A stretch of 7,944 nt of DNA from a virus (IMGVR_UViG_2703718859_000024), one strand, 5' to 3'; positions 937 to 6,674 are shown, counted from the stretch's first letter. Translations and numbers: made by a program. Notes: generated by a model from the sequence alone, not told the origin.

Positions 937-1049
937 CCGGTAGCCTCTTGCGTTGGTGTATCTGGTCCTACCAGTTTAATTTAACGTCGCAATAAAACGA
1001 TATACACGCACACAATCAGAAAAACCGTCTGACTGTTCCGGTCCTGTGC

Positions 1050-1322
1050 TTACTTCTGGTAGCTACGCCAGATTTTTTTACATCTCCCTCCTATCCCCAT
1101 TTCTGCGTATGTGCGGTTTACTGCTTTCCTCAGGTCTGCGTAGTTCTCCTCTGGCGGCTCCGGTGGCCTCTGTGCCTTCCCGTAACACTCTGCCCTGCGC
1201 ATTGCCACCCGTTCGCGTTCCCTGTCTGTCTCCACCAGCATCATCACTTCGGCCCATCGCGCCGCCGTTCTCCGGTAAAAGCCTTTCGACTCCAGTTCTT
1301 CCGCTATGCGGTCATGTACCAT
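1050..1322 (-). CDS. Hypothetical protein, about 90 aa (ORF-track entry 1050..1442 trimmed to the internal ATG)
   Basis: ATG at 1322-1320 preceded by GGGGAG about 5 nt upstream, starting 10 nt after the SSB stop (TGA 1335-1333). Stop TAA at 1052-1050. The longer form would overlap the SSB C-terminus by about 110 nt. No family recognised. Confidence 0.45.
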   Translation of the reverse strand: MVHDRIAEELESKGFYRRTAARWAEVMMLVETDRERERVAMRRAECYGKAQRPPEPPEENYADLRKAVNRTYAEMGIGGRCKKIWRSYQK

Positions 1323-1332
1323 CGTTCTCCCC

Positions 1333-1743
1333 TCAGAACGGAATATCATCACCATAAGGGTCATCGCCTCCCGCTGGTGGCTGATTACCCTGTGTGCCTG
1401 TGGTCCTGCGTCTGCTGCCACCTGGTTGCGCCGTTTTCGCACTGATTACGCTGTCTGCAATAACCTGATAACCCTGCCGCGTTTCCCCGTTCTGTCCGGT
1501 CCACTGGCTGACCTGCATCACGCCGGATACGCTGATTACGTTGCCTTTCTCATGGTGTGCCAGTTGGTCGGCCTGTTTGCCAAATGCCAGGACCGACAGC
1601 CATAACGTCGCCTGCCCGTCCTGCGCCTGACTGCATGGCAGTGATACCGCCATACGCGCCAGCGTCATCGGTGTGCCCTTACTGGTCTGTTTTGTCTGCG
1701 GGTCGTCAATCAGTCGCCCGTAAGCTGCTATCTGTGCTGTCAT
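1333..1743 (-). CDS. ssb: Single-stranded DNA-binding protein (SSB) with conserved acidic C-terminal tip
   Basis: 136-aa ORF, ATG at 1743-1741 preceded by GGAGAGGTGG. The N-terminal ~110 aa fit the SSB OB-fold pattern (AYGRLIDDPQ...LWLSVLAFGKQADQLA...KGNVISVSGVMQVSQWTGQNGETRQGYQVIADSV), followed by a Gly/Pro/Gln-rich linker and a terminal DDIPF identical to the bacterial SSB tail. Confidence 0.85.
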   Translation of the reverse strand: MTAQIAAYGRLIDDPQTKQTSKGTPMTLARMAVSLPCSQAQDGQATLWLSVLAFGKQADQLAHHEKGNVISVSGVMQVSQWTGQNGETRQGYQVIADSVISAKTAQPGGSRRRTTGTQGNQPPAGGDDPYGDDIPF

Positions 1744-1981
1744 GATTCCACCTCTCCGGTTTTAACGTTGATGGTTGTTACCTGTTCCGCTTCTGCAATC
1801 TCCCGCTCTGTCAGCGTGGTAAAGTTTGTCGCTGCTGTGCTCATGAATGCACTTATCAGCCAGGGGGCTTTCGCGTGTCTTTCTGCCGTGTTGTGGCCCT
1901 TCGTTCACGAGCAAAACACTTAAATAAAAATAAAGTGATTTTCTGTGTTTTCGTGCTGCTCTGCTCTGTTTTTTTTTGCCG

Positions 1982-2181
1982 TTTACTCACCACTACTCAC
2001 TTTTTTTACTCACTTTTTGGAATCGCTCACTTCGTCTCACCTGAGATTTTTGGTGTTTTTATGTGTATGTTTTATAAGTGGTTTTTTACTGCTCACTTTT
2101 TTGCCTATATACAGGTGAGAAAGTGAGTAATTTTGTTAATTTTTTGTAAAATTACTCACTTTACTCACTTTTGCTCCTCAC
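1982..2181. repeat. Iteron array flanking an A+T-rich stretch: putative replication origin
   Basis: Nine direct copies of the core CTCAC (mostly as TTACTCACTTT) starting at 1986, 1996, 2009, 2026, 2036, 2092, 2155, 2164 and 2177, plus two inverted copies (GTGAG) at 2115 and 2123. Several are about 10 bp apart. They flank a T-rich segment at about 2041-2090, directly downstream of the replication gene stop at 2186. Confidence 0.55.
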
Positions 2182-2185
2182 TTTT

Positions 2186-3583
2186 TTACAGCGGTACTAC
2201 GTCATCGCCGTCAATGCGTATAGTCTCGTCTTTCTCCAGTTTTGCTAACCATCGCCGCATGTTTTTCACGTCATACCCAAGCCGTTTCATGTCGTCGCGC
2301 AACAACGAAATAGTGCACTTGTCGCCGTGCTGTGTGCGTGACCGGATGCACCCCCATAGCGCGGTATGGTTTTCCGTCTTGTTCCCTGCCTCCTCGATGC
2401 GCTCCTGTTCAACGGGAGGACGCGGCTTATCAACCACCACCAGCGACGTAATTAACTCCCCGTCAGCGTCGGTAAAAAGCTCCACCACGCGTAAGTCATA
2501 TGCTGCTTCTTTGAGTTCCTCCGCGTCCTTCATTTTGGTACATGAGATAACCAGCGCTTCGCTGCCTGCGTCCTCCCTGCGTATCCGGTATTCGGCGTCC
2601 AGTGATGCACGAAATGCACTGGAACCGCGCGCGCCTTTCGTCTCATCCTTGCCGGAATGGTGAACCACCAGCACCGTGGCCCCTGTGCGCCGTTTAAGCT
2701 CGTCACACCCACGGATAAACGCCCCCATATCACGGGAATCATTTTCATCATTGCCGCCAAAGCAACGCGCCAGCGTATCCAGAATAATCATGCGTACAGG
2801 TTTACCCGTTTCCCGCTCCACCTGGCGGGCAGCGATAACCATTTCATCAACATCAAGCGGGACAGCCGGAAAGATGGGACGGTTTACCAGATACAGATTT
2901 TTCACCTGCTCACCGTGCACAACCTCCCAGGCTTTTACACGACGCGGAACGCCGATACCTCCTTCACCAACCACATAGAGAACCGCACCATGCGCCACCC
3001 TGCGGCCTCCCCACTGGCGCCCCGTGGAAACGTGACACGCCCACGAACCCGCAAGGAACGATTTATAGGAACCGCTCGCCCCGTATATGCTGCATAGCGA
3101 CGATGCCGGAATAATCCCCTTTACCACGTAATCAAGTTGTGTATCGTATCCGGCAGAACCAACGCTCATCGGTAGCTTTGTTTTGCGCTGGTGGCCTTTT
3201 TCTTCCTGCTTTTCCCCGCGCTCCCGTTCCAGATATTCGCGCCAGTTCTCCCGCTTCTGGCTGTGCATCCCATCGGGGTAATAATTCGCATCCTGTACAC
3301 CTGCCGCTGCCAGCTTGTGCGCAATGGCATTAATATTTGATGGTCTGATATGGCCTGCCTTGTACAGCCGGACGCAATAGCGGCCCTCGTCGATGATTCT
3401 CATGTCTGTCAGTTCTGCCAGTTGCTGCTCCCCAAGCCATACAGGTGGCACATTATCGCCAGCAAGTCGGCCCTCCTGCTCCTGCCACTGCTTCGCGTGT
3501 GCCCAGGCATCACTACCCGCAAAAATAATGACCTCGGTCATTTTGTCGTAAGGCTGTTTTTTTAAGTTCGGTGCGCTTTTCAT
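2186..3583 (-). CDS. Replication protein: primase/helicase-like with RecA-fold (RepA/DnaB-like, AAA_25-type) ATPase domain
   Basis: 465-aa ORF, ATG at 3583-3581, stop TAA at 2188-2186. Deviant Walker A YGASGSYKS, Walker B-like MIILDTLAR, and VLVVHHSGKD (the hhhHHxGK motif typical of RepA/DnaB-type RecA-fold ATPases). An iteron array lies immediately downstream. The C-terminal ~100 aa could be a DNA-binding domain; that is inference. Confidence 0.8.
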   Translation of the reverse strand: MKSAPNLKKQPYDKMTEVIIFAGSDAWAHAKQWQEQEGRLAGDNVPPVWLGEQQLAELTDMRIIDEGRYCVRLYKAGHIRPSNINAIAHKLAAAGVQDANYYPDGMHSQKRENWREYLERERGEKQEEKGHQRKTKLPMSVGSAGYDTQLDYVVKGIIPASSLCSIYGASGSYKSFLAGSWACHVSTGRQWGGRRVAHGAVLYVVGEGGIGVPRRVKAWEVVHGEQVKNLYLVNRPIFPAVPLDVDEMVIAARQVERETGKPVRMIILDTLARCFGGNDENDSRDMGAFIRGCDELKRRTGATVLVVHHSGKDETKGARGSSAFRASLDAEYRIRREDAGSEALVISCTKMKDAEELKEAAYDLRVVELFTDADGELITSLVVVDKPRPPVEQERIEEAGNKTENHTALWGCIRSRTQHGDKCTISLLRDDMKRLGYDVKNMRRWLAKLEKDETIRIDGDDVVPL

Positions 3584-3879
3584 TTCTTGCCCCTGAATGC
3601 GTTAATCATCTTTTTCATCTTCTGTATTTTTGCCAGTGCCTTTACGTTGCTGGTGGGCACGTTACGCGGTACCGCCTGCACCAGAGAAAAATCACGGGAA
3701 AACTGATAAACAGGCATCACGCAATCATATTCGTAGCCTTTACGGCGGTAGGTGACGCACCGCCCCGCCACGCCCTTAATCATTACCGTGCCGCCGTACT
3801 GGTCGCGGTAAATATCACCGCGCTTAAATTCAGGGCGAGGCTTGCCGCTGGCAGTTAAGCCAGTTTTTTTCATGTTCAT
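3580..3879 (-). CDS. Hypothetical protein, 99 aa, translationally coupled to the replication gene
   Basis: ATG at 3879-3877 with AAGGA about 9 nt upstream. Its stop TGA (3582-3580) overlaps the ATG (3583-3581) of the downstream replication gene in an ATGA arrangement. Basic protein, no family recognised. Confidence 0.5.
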   Translation of the reverse strand: MNMKKTGLTASGKPRPEFKRGDIYRDQYGGTVMIKGVAGRCVTYRRKGYEYDCVMPVYQFSRDFSLVQAVPRNVPTSNVKALAKIQKMKKMINAFRGKK

Positions 3880-3952
3880 TTTTTTATCCTTTGTTCTGGT
3901 CAGTTACGCCGTTGCTGCATAAATGCGGTTAGCTGTGACTGTCGTTGCCTTA

Positions 3953-4267
3953 TCACGAATGGCGATAATCAGTACTGATATCTCCGTTACGGCAACGCCA
4001 GTTGTACACCTCCACAACCTCACTGAATCCGGCCACAAGTTCAGCCGTAACAGCGATGGAATCGCCCAGGCTGCGCAGTTCGTCCATGTCAGGATCAATG
4101 CTGTCACTCATGCCAGAAAGTAAGCGCCCTGTGATAGCCAGCCCTTCAAGCAATTTGCGGGCGTAGAAGTCAGCATCATCAAACATCGCTCTCGCTTCCC
4201 GTGCGTCAGCTGCTTTTATGGTTGTAACCAGTTGTTCAAGTATTCTGGTGTTACACACATCACGCAT
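3953..4267 (-). CDS. Hypothetical protein, about 104 aa (ORF-track entry 3953..4297 begins at TTG; the internal ATG is preferred)
   Basis: ATG at 4267-4265 preceded by GGGGGGA and overlapping the stop of the 154-aa gene by 8 nt, the same geometry as the junction between the two paralogs. Stop TGA at 3955-3953. No recognisable motif. Confidence 0.45.
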   Translation of the reverse strand: MRDVCNTRILEQLVTTIKAADAREARAMFDDADFYARKLLEGLAITGRLLSGMSDSIDPDMDELRSLGDSIAVTAELVAGFSEVVEVYNWRCRNGDISTDYRHS

Positions 4268-4724
4268 GACGTCCCCCCTGACGAATACGGGCGACAAAAA
4301 TCAGATGGGTATGCGGAAGTTGTGCGCGGGTTTCGCGTTCTGTTGCTGCCGTGGCGGTAAAGGGTGAGGCTTGTTTTTCATGGCACTGCATAAAGCGCCA
4401 GACAAAGTAAGGGCGTGCGGATACAGCCATGTGAAAGGCTCCTGTAGTGAAATTAAGGAGTCTCGCTACTACGCTGCTAAACATGGTGGCGAGACGTAAC
4501 GGGGTTAGCAGACTGGCACTACAGGAACCAGCGAGCGCAAAGGCTCCCCCGTTACGCCCCGCCATAATGCGGGTATGGGTAGGTTTACGGACGCAAAAAA
4601 ACCGCATATCGGAATGTAAGCGGCTGTCCGCTGTAGTATTCAGGCTGCTAAACCCGGTCGCCATGTGGGCGACTCCGGCATCATACAGCCCGAAAGAAGA
4701 GGCGATCAACATGTTTTTAAGCAT
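4260..4724 (-). CDS. Hypothetical protein, 154 aa; downstream member (A) of the tandem paralog pair
   Basis: ATG at 4724-4722 preceded by GGGGGTGAG and overlapping the 3' end of the upstream paralog by 8 nt; stop TGA at 4262-4260. C-terminus ...FVWRF...TERETRAQ...IFVARIRQGGRHA parallels ...FIWRF...TEREARNR...VFAARIRQGVSHA of the 181-aa protein. Confidence 0.5.
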   Translation of the reverse strand: MLKNMLIASSFGLYDAGVAHMATGFSSLNTTADSRLHSDMRFFCVRKPTHTRIMAGRNGGAFALAGSCSASLLTPLRLATMFSSVVARLLNFTTGAFHMAVSARPYFVWRFMQCHEKQASPFTATAATERETRAQLPHTHLIFVARIRQGGRHA

Positions 4725-5262
4725 GACTCACCCCCTGACGAATACGGGCAGCGAATACAGCGACACAACCGGACGGGCAACGGTTACGCGCTTCGCGTTC
4801 CGTCCAGGCGGTTACGTGGATAATTTGACGTTCTGACGTGCCAAAGGTGATAAAACGCCAGATAAAGGCAGTCTGAGAATGTACGAGGGCTGGGGTAGTA
4901 GCCATGATGGCAGCCTCCTTTATCGTTGGGATATACCCACCGCTGGAGGTTCCAATCTCGCTGGCGGTGGACTGCACGGAGTTGGAACTACTGGCGATAA
5001 AGGAAACCAGCCTGACCGAAGTCAGCCCCATACAGCCCACCATTGATAAGGTGTGCGTGTGCGCCGATACAAAAAAAGACGCGTTCGGCGTCTGTATCGC
5101 CTTTATCTCCAGCGGGGTTCCAATCCCGACACCCGTTTTATAAGGTGCGCGGGAATCATAGCCATTTTTGATACTGGCGATCAACTGATTTTCTCTGGCG
5201 GGTATTTGGCGCGGATGCCTGTTGCCTGTGACAATATGCACACGACTGTATACAATACACAT
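4717..5262 (-). CDS. Hypothetical protein, 181 aa; upstream member (B) of a tandem paralog pair
   Basis: ATG at 5262-5260 preceded by AAGGAG at about 8-nt spacing; stop TAA at 4719-4717. Homologous over its length to the next gene (shared N[MQ]LIAS, YD, FF, THT, WRF, TERE and C-terminal ARIRQG..HA). The corresponding plus-strand ORF is not preserved in the other copy. Confidence 0.5.
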   Translation of the reverse strand: MCIVYSRVHIVTGNRHPRQIPARENQLIASIKNGYDSRAPYKTGVGIGTPLEIKAIQTPNASFFVSAHTHTLSMVGCMGLTSVRLVSFIASSSNSVQSTASEIGTSSGGYIPTIKEAAIMATTPALVHSQTAFIWRFITFGTSERQIIHVTAWTEREARNRCPSGCVAVFAARIRQGVSHA

Positions 5263-5436
5263 CGGTTAACTCCTTATATTACGTTAATGGCCCGTAGTGT
5301 TATTGCATTGCGGGTATTTTTTTACCTGCCGTTAATTGAATGCGGCAAGGCATCACGATGGTTAACCCGTTTTGCATAACGTGAGGCGTTTTATTTTCTG
5401 CGCTGGTGGCTTTTATATGTCACACATGGAAATTTA

Positions 5437-5640
5437 TTATTCCTGCTGATAACGCTCCTCTACTTTCTTCTCAAGCCATGATTTCACCTCATCCTCAAAC
5501 CAGCCAACGCGACGCAATCCACGCTTAAAGCCAGGAATAAACTCACCAGCCTTAACCATTGTGTCAATGCTTGTTGTACTAAGGCGAAGAAGATTTGCGA
5601 CTTCTCGTTTTGTAAGGATTTTCTTTTCTGTGATGTTCAT
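5437..5640 (-). CDS. alpA: AlpA-family phage transcriptional regulator / excisionase-like HTH protein
   Basis: 67-aa ORF, ATG at 5640-5638 preceded by AAGGAAAG RBS, stop TAA at 5439-5437. Sequence ...LLRLSTTSIDTMVKAGEFIPGFKRGLRRVGWFEDEVKSWLE matches the AlpA/Xis-type pattern (HTH then conserved VGW...E...WL). Confidence 0.75.
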   Translation of the reverse strand: MNITEKKILTKREVANLLRLSTTSIDTMVKAGEFIPGFKRGLRRVGWFEDEVKSWLEKKVEERYQQE

Positions 5641-5730
5641 GCTTTGCTTTCCTTTTGTTTCAGGCGATAACTTGCCTAAACTTGCTTAAGGATATGCAAA
5701 CATGGTTAATGTCGGTATTGCGCAATATTA

Positions 5731-5756
5731 CGAAAAAAGCCCGTAATATTACGGGC
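5731..5756 (-). terminator. Rho-independent terminator candidate after the 298-aa gene
   Basis: Perfect 18-bp palindrome GCCCGTAATATTACGGGC at 5739-5756, followed on the minus strand by a run of six T (plus-strand A run 5733-5738). It lies about 20 nt downstream of the stop at 5778. Confidence 0.5.
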
Positions 5757-5777
5757 GGTCATGTGTTCAGAAGTCTG

Positions 5778-6674
5778 TCAGTCGTCAACGTCTGCAAGCC
5801 ACTTACCAACAGATGAAGGGGTTGCGCCAATTTCAACCCCTGCTTTGGTTAGTGCGCGGCTTAACTTGCTGTGACCGTTCTCAAGCGCTCTTCTTGGGTT
5901 TGCTGCCTCTTCTTCTCCGGCTATGGCGGTGATTAGTCTTTTGATAACTCTGGCCTGAAGATTGGTTGTTTTCTTACTCTGCGAATGCGACAAGGCGTGT
6001 TTATCTGAAAAATCCTTTACCATATCTCCTGGTTGTCTGCCGCCGTTCATTACTATTTTTATCTCTTCTTTTGAGATGAAAATGTCACTAATATTTATTG
6101 TTTTGCCATATAAATTTATTGTTATCTTTGGTTCTTTTCCTTTATCTGCTATAACGATGCGTCGCACATAACAATCTGTGACGTCATTTGATAGATTCTC
6201 TATATCAATGCTTGTATTAAATACCTGTAAAAGTCCTGAAGCCACAACCCTGATTTTATGTGGTAACTGTGTTCTGATTTTTCTTTGTTTATATCCATGA
6301 TAGTTGTATATAAAAATATCTGTTTCAGAATAACCGCCACAGCAATTAAAAAATATCTTTTCCGTTAGCTGTTCTTCATCGGTTATTATTTTTTCACCAA
6401 AAGATGAGGATTCAAGTAATTTTAATATGTCGGTTGCTCTGATGAATACGCCTTCATCATTTTCATAATAATAATCTGATGCTGATACACTATTAAATGC
6501 GTTTTTATAATTATGTAATGTCAAAACCTCGTCTATGTGATGACGGTACCAAAAACACATCTTCCCTGTAGCGATGAAGTGAATCAAATCATCAACGTCA
6601 CACCCAAGCCTTCTGGCTGCCTTGTCTAACGGGTAATAATCCCTTTCAGGAAGGTTTATCTTTTTGTTTGTCAT
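5778..6674 (-). CDS. Hypothetical protein, 298 aa, with helix-turn-helix-like N-terminal segment; A+T-rich 5' two-thirds, ordinary-GC 3' end
   Basis: ATG at 6674-6672 lies 4 nt downstream of the integrase stop, on the same strand; stop TGA at 5780-5778. Residues ~13-38 (YYPLDKAARRLGCDVDDLIHFIATGKM) fit an HTH pattern. Hand counts of 60-nt stretches inside 6000-6360 give roughly 25-40% G+C, versus ~50% or more in neighbouring genes. I recognise no family for it. Confidence 0.6.
   Translation of the reverse strand: MTNKKINLPERDYYPLDKAARRLGCDVDDLIHFIATGKMCFWYRHHIDEVLTLHNYKNAFNSVSASDYYYENDEGVFIRATDILKLLESSSFGEKIITDEEQLTEKIFFNCCGGYSETDIFIYNYHGYKQRKIRTQLPHKIRVVASGLLQVFNTSIDIENLSNDVTDCYVRRIVIADKGKEPKITINLYGKTINISDIFISKEEIKIVMNGGRQPGDMVKDFSDKHALSHSQSKKTTNLQARVIKRLITAIAGEEEAANPRRALENGHSKLSRALTKAGVEIGATPSSVGKWLADVDD

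Follow-up and report, generated by a model that had tools for sequence, protein, structure and literature searches.

P4, phages P1 and P7, and Gifsy-1 carry the closest described counterparts of the locus reported here, a putative RNA-based immunity region in IMGVR_UViG_2703718859_000024, a viral DNA of 7944 nt (the window; positions are counted from its first letter). In P4, Kil is translated on read-through (PMC10111431, summarising Forti et al. 1999 and Sabbattini et al. 1995), and Eta is translated only from the upstream late promoter, its translation preventing termination (PMC10111431). Gifsy-1 shares with the window an isrK RNA that carries a terminator, and also a C4/CI-like RNA, there named STnc1160, which underlies a small open reading frame (ORF) with two in-frame AUGs (PMC4825925). 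The stop codon of this small ORF overlaps the next start, coupling was shown by mutation, and the homology of the RNAs to seqA and CI was given in the same work (PMC4825925). In P1, icd is apparently needed for expression of ant (PMC8201110). In the P1-like phage D6, we found that the icd stop codon overlaps the ant start by 1 nt. In the heteroimmunity of P1 and P7, specificity is set by a few loop bases, as it is in the window.

The region of the window compared with these systems is likely to be an early/immunity operon belonging to a small satellite-like integrative island, laid out on the plan of the P4 left operon with two immunity units in tandem. All the genes under discussion lie on the minus strand (ORF listing of the window). 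Features of the P4 type were found in both units: a C4/CI RNA, targets on both sides of it, a downstream target at a ribosome-binding site (RBS), and nested long and short genes. The upstream seqA/isrK element of the P4 type scored over the Rfam gathering score in unit 1 and under it in unit 2, but the latter had 7 + 7 nt of cognate complements. As far as sequence can show it, the window holds two self-contained immunity units, each with a code of its own.

Two RNA cassettes in tandem

The order of isrK and C4 matches was identical in the two units (Rfam; gathering scores of 45 bits for C4, RF01695, and 50 bits for isrK, RF01394). A crude promoter scan of the minus strand from 1000 to 5800 gave only two sigma-70-like sites, both of the form TTGATC-18-TATGAT and each ending 7 nt ahead of the start of an isrK model match.

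Unit 1 is spanned by a long eta-like frame of 181 codons (4717-5262), identified by its BLASTP match to P4 Eta. Its ATG at 5262 is preceded at a distance of 7 nt by the Shine-Dalgarno (SD) sequence AAGGAG (5275-5270), and a TAA in the same frame occupies 5268-5266. From the ATG, the frame crosses the promoter-like site P1, isrK-1 and C4-1 and ends with Kil/Icd-like gene 1. Site P1 (5155-5184), which is PLE-like, consists of a -35 hexamer TTGATC at 5184-5179 and a -10 hexamer TATGAT at 5160-5155. The site lies within the conserved codons for 'NQLIA...GYD', and was kept in 32 unique relatives with differing upstream flanks. The isrK/seqA-like RNA 1 (5072-5148; 61.5 bits to RF01394) contains target sites a1 (5123-5117) and b1 (5107-5100), followed by a predicted intrinsic terminator hairpin at 5093-5077 and a T run (terminator scan, consensus only). 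The C4/CI antisense RNA 1 (4960-5047) matched RF01695 over its full length with 77.6 bits. In its fold, the b' loop lies at 5004-4995 and the a' loop at 4988-4982, and it has in-frame AUGs at 5043 and 5031. Its downstream targets (4914-4955) are a2 at 4955-4949 and b2 at 4925-4916, the latter overlapping the SD AAGGAGG (4920-4914) of the short gene. This 62-aa Kil/Icd-like gene (4717-4905) starts at ATG 4905 behind its strong SD and is nested in frame in the long one. PGAP calls it 'Icd-like' in an E. coli locus (L001) that is 96.5% identical to the window; the PGAP name for both short genes is 'host cell division inhibitor Icd-like'.

Unit 2 repeats this plan. Its long eta-like frame of 154 codons (4260-4724) was open in relatives. 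The promoter-like site P2 (4680-4709) has its hexamers TTGATC at 4709-4704 and TATGAT at 4685-4680; the site reads TTGCAA-17-TATGCT in relatives. The isrK/seqA-like RNA 2 (4595-4673) scored 36.6 bits to RF01394 and 32.4 bits to RF03163, both under the gathering scores; its homologue in relatives passes the gathering score of RF03163. It contains target sites a1 (4651-4645) and b1 (4637-4631), and a long-loop hairpin with a T run. The C4/CI antisense RNA 2 (4482-4569; RF01695, 73.5 bits) has its b' loop at 4526-4517, its a' loop at 4511-4505, and an in-frame AUG at 4565. Its downstream targets (4439-4480) are a2 at 4480-4474 and b2 at 4449-4440, which overlaps the SD AGGAG (4443-4439). The nested short gene 2 (4260-4430; ATG 4430, strong SD) encodes a 56-aa Kil/Icd-like protein that is 43% identical to Icd-like-1 over 49 aa.

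Pairing between each C4 RNA and its targets was judged by perfect complements of loops and targets. Duplexfold energies, which are dominated by the long stems, were of no use for telling cognate pairs from non-cognate ones. The complements of C4-1 were 10 nt (4925-4916) and 7 nt (4955-4949) downstream, and 8 and 7 nt in isrK-1. Those of C4-2 in unit 2 were 10 and 7 nt downstream, and 7 and 7 nt upstream. Matches across the units to the a and b target sites were at most 6 nt long. The lone longer cross match, of 8 nt, joined the C4-1 stem (5015-5008) to isrK-2 (4647-4640), outside the loops. The loop and target sequences of the two units differ, and therefore each RNA should govern only its own unit.

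A profile scan with the Icd alignment gave 80 usable loci from viral contigs and a single locus from genome contigs. The covariation alignments held 32 unique relatives of the unit-1 type and 16 of the unit-2 type. In these relatives, changes in the loop were accompanied by changes in both target sites, upstream and downstream (three-way covariation). For unit 2, the covariation comprised at least six b and two a specificities, and 22 distinct loop cores were counted among 34 unique modules. Cognate complements were always at least 7 nt long, and non-cognate downstream complements of at least 9 nt occurred in 4% of the comparisons. Selection thus acts on both units as RNA regulators, as the covariation of loop and target sites shows. 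The sequences suggest that immunity specificity may diversify rapidly.

Among the IMG/VR loci (L004-L083), the C4 loop and both target sites were hypervariable, and a and b sites were recombined in varied combinations.

The cassettes of P4 and SfV were examined in the same way. In P4, the Rfam matches to isrK (8692-8615) and to C4, its CI RNA (8507-8420, 74.9 bits), both lie inside a frame of 214 codons (8812-8168). The isrK and C4 matches of P4 and SfV likewise fall inside ORFs annotated as eta or 'immunity region'. A short P4 frame (8362-8168), opening 'MATTLTPSHPEF...', forms the last 65 codons of the long one. We take the long frame to be eta and the short one to be kil. The same assignment is found in the summary of PMC10111431. 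The RBS of P4 kil, GGAGGCTGCCATCATGGCTAC, is near-identical to that of Icd-1 in the window, and the 'EAAIMATT' context is common to both. The P4 hexamers TTGCCT ... TATAGT, taken to be PLE, end 6 nt ahead of the isrK model start, compared with 7 nt in the window.

Open frames and start-stop junctions

The genes of the region meet in overlapping stop and start codons. At J1 (4724-4717, ATGCTTAA), the stop of the 181-aa ORF and Icd-like-1 overlaps the ATG of the 154-aa ORF, with GGGGGTGAG 3 nt upstream. At J2 (4267-4260, ATGCGTGA), the stop of the 154-aa ORF and Icd-like-2 overlaps the ATG of the 104-aa ORF (orf104). At J3 (3583-3580, ATGA), the stop of the DUF4222 gene overlaps the start of the RepA-like helicase gene, and at J4 (1743-1740, ATGA), the stop of a 34-aa ORF overlaps the start of the gene for SSB. 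These four overlaps had been described in the first-pass annotation, and the DNA reads exactly as it claimed. Between orf104 and the DUF4222 gene there is no overlap but a gap of 73 nt (3952-3880).

Three of the four junctions are conserved well above chance. In 69 of 71 unique relatives, the Icd-like stop is overlapped by the ATG or GTG of an ORF that is at least 40 codons long; the overlap measures 8 nt (43 relatives), 11 nt (20), 4 nt (5) or 14 nt (1). The C-terminal residues of the Icd-like proteins varied among these relatives, and the overlapping start was retained. None of the 16 unique tandem relatives lacked the ATG of J1. In 58 of 60 unique loci, the DUF4222 gene ends in an ATGA or GTGA that also starts the replication gene behind it; the ORF that follows ranged from 451 to 710 codons, with the overlap kept. 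Overlaps of 8 nt were also found at P4 eta/epsilon, P4 epsilon/orf151 and SfV orf37/orf38. At the 8-nt junctions of the window, P4, SfV and freshwater metagenome elements, a GGRGG(TG) SD lies 4-6 nt ahead of the ATG.

In distant relatives on freshwater metagenome contigs (L089, 1013-3818; L090, 3-1578), 8-nt ATGNNTRA overlaps link five genes in a row, with five such overlaps in succession. Every such overlap has a GGRGG motif upstream, and the chain holds an Ash ORF and an orf104 homologue.

Judged from its sequence, the junction cassette looks like a modular connector. Translational coupling at the same type of junction was demonstrated experimentally in isrK-orf45-anrP of Gifsy-1 (PMC4825925), and coupling at such overlaps has also been summarised for P4 eta (PMC10111431). 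Translational coupling along the gene chain of the window is thus supported. The first-pass annotation had drawn the genes from the 181-aa ORF to the replication protein as one tightly coupled unit. The co-orientation of these genes and the conserved SD-start-stop overlaps uphold the coupling, but the promoter-like sites inside each cassette do not agree with one simple transcription unit. As for the fourth junction, the ATGA overlap with ssb is present, but it follows the remnant of a truncated gene. The 34-aa ORF, formerly proposed as a leader, is refuted as such: it is the C-terminal tail of an 81-83-aa gene, as seen from its E. coli homologue, phrog_1231 and the PGAP call of a pseudogene.

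About 100 codons of each long ORF consist of the isrK/seqA-like RNA and the C4/CI antisense RNA. The 181-aa and 154-aa ORFs aligned as proteins only over their last 49 residues. Nucleotide diversity at the three codon positions was 0.055/0.073/0.126 and 0.109/0.115/0.225 in the Icd part, about a two-fold excess at the third position. In the RNA part, it was 0.20/0.21/0.25 and 0.21/0.17/0.17, with no third-position excess. The coding pattern of substitution was thus confined to the C-terminal 62 and 56 codons, which are the Kil/Icd-like genes.

An alternative is that the RNAs and the short Kil/Icd-like genes are the sole real elements. Translation would then never take place in the frames 5262-4906 and 4724-4431, J1 would be a by-product of the conserved Icd C-terminus, and only J2 and J3 would be functional. 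The missing third-position excess agrees with this, as do the lack of amino-acid conservation between the RNA parts of the two units, the position of ATG 4724 upstream of the predicted P2 start, and the PGAP annotation, which splits unit 1 into a pseudo 'ash' fragment and the 62-aa Icd-like gene. We nevertheless consider it unlikely. The Icd frame, followed for 81 codons upstream of the Icd ATG, had no stop codon in any of the 34 unique modules. The other two frames contained 2.5 and 5.1 stops on average, and were stop-free in only 4/34 and 0/34 modules. The unit-2 frame from the ATG of J1 was open in all relatives despite two independent pairs of compensated frameshifts: a +1 followed by a -1 inside isrK-2, and a -1 in the isrK-2 terminator loop followed by a +1 in the C4-2 loop. 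Other indels came in threes; that between isrK-1 and C4-1 was 3 nt. SfV aligned with the 181-aa ORF in one frame with 38% amino-acid identity and 92% coverage, and P4 Eta (214 aa) aligned with its residues 66-174, also in a single frame (BLASTP, E = 4e-6). At other loci, the frame continues upstream into large fused ORFs. The overlapping start is kept while the Icd C-termini vary, which also argues against a by-product, and P4 eta is described as translated (PMC10111431).

We also rejected a related candidate, under which the two long ORFs (181 and 154 aa) would be spurious frames overlying RNA genes: the frame was open in every relative, frameshifts were compensated, and eta and kil of P4 are equally nested.

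In many related elements (L012, 730-3189; L018, 892-3189; L005, L024 and others), no stop interrupts the Icd frame for 400-819 codons ahead of the RNA cassette. Pfam and PHROG searches of these long N-terminal extensions found nothing beyond Phage_ASH and Icd-like segments, and the Icd-like PHROG segment adjoins the cassette.

Because the long frame is kept open yet lacks a third-position excess in its RNA part, ribosome transit rather than the peptide appears to be under selection there, in agreement with the summary on P4 eta (PMC10111431). A similar case is orf45 of Gifsy-1, in which the nucleotide sequence is conserved and the amino-acid sequence is not (PMC4825925). The ATGs at 5262 and 4724 both lie upstream of the predicted internal transcript starts, and therefore the long frames should be translatable only from transcripts begun further upstream. 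By analogy with P4, such transcripts would begin upstream of alpA and not in the 174-bp gap behind it.

A mechanism like that of Gifsy-1 was also considered. The isrK-like RNA would act in trans as an activator and open an inactive read-through transcript, and translation would start at the AUG in the 5' end of C4 (5043/4565), coupled to what lies downstream. Both the activation by IsrK and the orf45-anrP coupling were shown experimentally (PMC4825925). In the window, isrK-1 exceeds its Rfam gathering score, and the 5' end of C4 in unit 1, like orf45, offers two in-frame AUGs separated by 12 nt. Of 50 unique C4 copies, 47 had the C4 AUG in the reading frame of Icd. On the other hand, the frames from AUG 5043 and 4565 run stop-free into Icd; the small ORF of Gifsy-1 ends in an AUGA at the antirepressor, and the orf45-like frame here has no stop at the start of the next gene. 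In three relatives, the C4 AUG was out of frame and the long upstream frame was still open. In its architecture, with a Kil homologue nested in the frame and replication genes downstream, the window is closer to P4 than to Gifsy-1. We therefore regard a Gifsy-1-like mechanism as quite improbable as the sole explanation, although it and a P4-type mechanism are not mutually exclusive.

An ordinary polycistronic operon of conventional proteins, with the 181-aa and 154-aa paralogs among them, overlaps that only balance protein amounts and one promoter in the 174-bp gap, would account for the co-oriented genes, the real junctions, the good SD of ATG 5262 and the Pfam and PHROG matches of the long ORFs, but it is very improbable, with two full-length C4 RNAs and isrK-like elements filling most of both ORFs, protein alignment limited to the last 49 residues, no coding substitution pattern in the RNA part, promoter-like sites inside both ORFs and none found in the gap, and a loop/target covariation that indicates selection at the RNA level. 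Two earlier proposals fall with this operon. The 181-aa and 154-aa 'paralogs' are mostly isrK and C4 RNA, and only their Kil/Icd-like ends show a coding pattern; a transcript start in the gap after the AlpA-like gene found no sigma-70 match there in the crude scan.

Several points weigh against the P4-type reading that we prefer. The promoters and terminators are consensus matches and thus predicted only, and the crude scan predicted no sigma-70 promoter ahead of either ATG 5262 or alpA. The scores of isrK-2 and its a1b1 element in the window remained below the Rfam gathering thresholds. The openness of the long frame may be attributable in part to nucleotide conservation of the RNAs. PGAP did not call the unit-1 long ORF as a single gene, and in one relative (L007), an uncompensated frameshift truncates the long frame. 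The gap between alpA and the long frame is 174 nt here, whereas the vis and eta ORFs of P4 overlap. Finally, the details of the P4 mechanism used for comparison came in part from a secondary summary (PMC10111431).

The island and its annotation

Outside the cassettes, the island contains an integrase gene (7944-6679; ORF calls, Pfam and PHROG), a 298-aa ORF (orf298) between it and the AlpA-like gene, and an AlpA/Vis-like helix-turn-helix gene (5437-5640; Pfam Phage_AlpA and HTH_17), which occupies the position of P4 vis (orf88). Behind the two units and orf104 come the DUF4222 gene (3580-3879; PF13973, 1.8e-23), which has its own SD, and the gene for the replication protein, a RepA-like helicase (2186-3583; Pfam AAA_25, 2e-43; phrog_2850; PGAP 'helicase RepA family'). 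The gene for SSB (1743-1333; ORF calls, Pfam and PHROG) is followed on the minus strand by PerC and then a Mor-like gene. In L001, the island is bounded by a tRNA-Ile on the int side, and its other end is marked by mor and two tRNA-like genes (PGAP), beyond which lies nfeF.

The conserved hypothetical gene orf104 (3953-4267) lies at the position of P4 epsilon. Its ATG at 4267 was accepted as the start because nearly all of its 49 homologues are 103-105 aa long. These came from E. coli, Salmonella, Klebsiella, Citrobacter, Lelliottia and Plesiomonas, and the gene always stood between an immunity cassette and replication genes, i.e. in the place of P4 epsilon. In other contexts, it again follows an Ash/Icd ORF with an 8-nt overlap and overlaps the gene behind it by 8 nt as well. 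Searches of Pfam and PHROG placed orf104 in no family, BLASTP gave no alignment with P4 epsilon, and the phage collection gave no match.

The remnant ahead of ssb (1740-1865), which contains the 34-aa ORF from ATG 1844, is the truncated 3' part of an 81-83-aa gene. It comprises the C-terminal 41 residues, shares 88% identity with residues 41-81 of a complete copy in E. coli, and matches positions 43-83 of 83 in phrog_1231. PGAP labels it a partial pseudogene in L001. The intact 81-aa E. coli copy overlaps ssb too, by ATGA.

Between the repA stop and this truncated gene, at 1982-2187, lie at least eight copies of a repeat of the AAAGTGAGTA type, read on the minus strand. This field is probably the iteron origin of the island, and it may have caused the loss of the 5' half of the gene ahead of ssb. 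A second array lies at about 300-400 on the minus strand, downstream of the Mor-like gene, and consists of three tandem GGTGAAAGAA units and then several GTGAAAT(C/A) repeats. By its sequence, it is a candidate for another iteron-like or protein-binding array. On the minus strand, tRNA-like sequence was noted at 41-122 and at about 160-255, with a score of 35 bits in Rfam. ARAGORN found no tRNA in the whole window, though Rfam and PGAP see tRNA-like genes; in L001 (9946-10145), PGAP lists a 'tRNA-OTHER' and a tRNA-Tyr of 82 nt at the end of the island away from the integrase. Possible explanations are remnants of att sites, or tRNA-like genes that act as cargo or decoys. Weak Rfam matches to isrL, tmRNA fragments and beta_tmRNA were all far under their gathering scores.

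Parts of the region matched 1430-1439 of 5426 complete E. coli genomes, or about a quarter. The tandem junction (the end of Icd-1, J1, P2 and isrK-2) was present in 115 of the 5426. The tandem form, with genes of the Icd-1 and Icd-2 types, made up about a third of 54 non-redundant IMG/VR locus clusters. The isrK-2 portion alone (positions 140-211 of the query window 4590-4800) gave several hundred matches on plasmids of E. coli, presumably P1-like phage-plasmids with related a1/b1 elements.

The Pfam Phage_ASH model (PF10554) matched the window at 4876-5160 (minus strand), a stretch that spans exactly the -10 hexamer, isrK-1, C4-1 and a2/b2, and the best match to the full model was P4 Eta. Because of this coincidence, the 'Ash protein family' looks like a translated promoter-isrK-C4 cassette that is conserved largely at the level of RNA and promoter. 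The PGAP annotation of L001 (4938-5940) is inconsistent: unit 1 is split into a pseudo 'ash family' gene and the 62-aa Icd-like gene, unit 2 is one 154-aa 'Icd-like' gene, and no non-coding RNA is annotated. Recent satellite surveys entered 'Icd' and 'ash' as accessory proteins. Recognition of the cassette would change the annotation of this whole class of islands.

A proposed relay and its known counterparts

From P4, P1 and Gifsy-1, we infer a scheme in which internal promoters feed the C4 RNAs, transcripts from upstream relay ribosomes through the units, and transcription passes to the replication genes. In quiescence, the internal promoters would yield short transcripts, from which the C4 RNAs would be processed. 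Each C4 RNA would pair with its own targets and block translation of its own kil/icd-like gene, and the untranslated transcript would terminate ahead of the replication genes. In the P4-type regions taken as the model, such early termination is Rho-dependent and is lifted by translation. On induction, transcripts starting upstream, probably together with alpA, would carry ATG 5262, which is outside C4 control. Ribosomes entering there would cross isrK-1, C4-1 and the target sites, and re-initiate at ATG 4724 (J1). Unit 2 would be crossed likewise, with re-initiation at ATG 4267 (J2). Both RNA locks would thus be bypassed, and transcription would reach the DUF4222 gene and repA, which are joined by J3. 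By this analogy, hand-over of ribosomes between overlapping genes probably decides the expression of the replication genes.

More tentatively, satellites may stack two or more P4-type units with orthogonal loop/target codes. Each constitutive internal promoter would be kept silent by its own RNA, and the conserved SD-ATG-NN-stop junctions would relay ribosomes so that one upstream induction bypasses all the locks. The fast-diversifying loop/target triplets (22 loop variants in 34 modules) would serve as an 'immunity barcode' for the coexistence or exclusion of related satellites or phages, and a tandem array would broaden the range of competitors that a resident element silences in trans. We find this broader idea possible, with the odds somewhat against it. 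If true, tandem orthogonal units with a hypervariable code would provide a testable system for RNA-based immunity and phage-satellite competition, and also a natural set of orthogonal antisense switches. The region itself appears to be a compact case in which one sequence acts together as promoter, regulatory RNA, RNA target and translated frame. No description of tandem heteroimmune units or of a junction relay was found in the literature searched, in which older P4 work is sparsely covered.

Phage-inducible chromosomal islands (PICIs) of Gram-negative bacteria, with zones named integration, Bro, replication and late, share with the window int, alpA, the zone of the Phage_ASH/Icd ORFs, and replication genes with SSB (PMC10111431). 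The Rfam C4 and isrK models match several PICIs (PMC10111431). In the island of the window, int, alpA, the RepA-like gene and ssb are present, and Pfam, PHROG and PGAP gave no terS, capsid, packaging or late genes.

The small ORF of Gifsy-1 differs from that of the window, which is fused in frame to a Kil/Icd-like domain and is followed by a gene other than an antirepressor. The window has, in addition, a longer frame that starts upstream of the promoter.

The immI region of P1 and P7 shares with the window a C4 RNA whose a' and b' loops pair with a1/b1 and a2/b2, and a downstream target at the icd RBS. It differs in the gene downstream, which is an antirepressor in immI; the controlled genes of the window are replication genes. 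No ant-type antirepressor was found after the icd-like genes of the window, as judged from orf104, for which neither a family in Pfam or PHROG nor a match among phages was found. In contrast to immI, the window has a long upstream frame through the RNAs, and its units are in tandem.

The closest agreement is with P4. The shared order runs from AlpA/Vis to a long frame with an internal promoter-like site, isrK/seqA and the C4/CI RNA, and then through the nested Kil gene and an 8-nt overlap to the next gene and the replication gene. In both, the SD of the nested Kil gene adjoins a CI target, and the Kil/Icd and Eta proteins are homologous. The differences lie in what follows and in the number of units. 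P4 has epsilon in the place of orf104, with no detectable similarity between them, and it has the alpha primase-helicase, whereas the window has a RepA-like AAA_25 helicase preceded by DUF4222. Matches to sid, delta, psu and the alpha-type primase, by which a P4-like satellite is recognized, were absent among the window ORFs in Pfam and PHROG. P4 carries a single unit, whereas the window carries two complete tandem units with distinct RNA specificities and an 8-nt overlap between them. The P4-type system itself is already known; for the tandem heteroimmune arrangement, the literature searched gave no earlier description.

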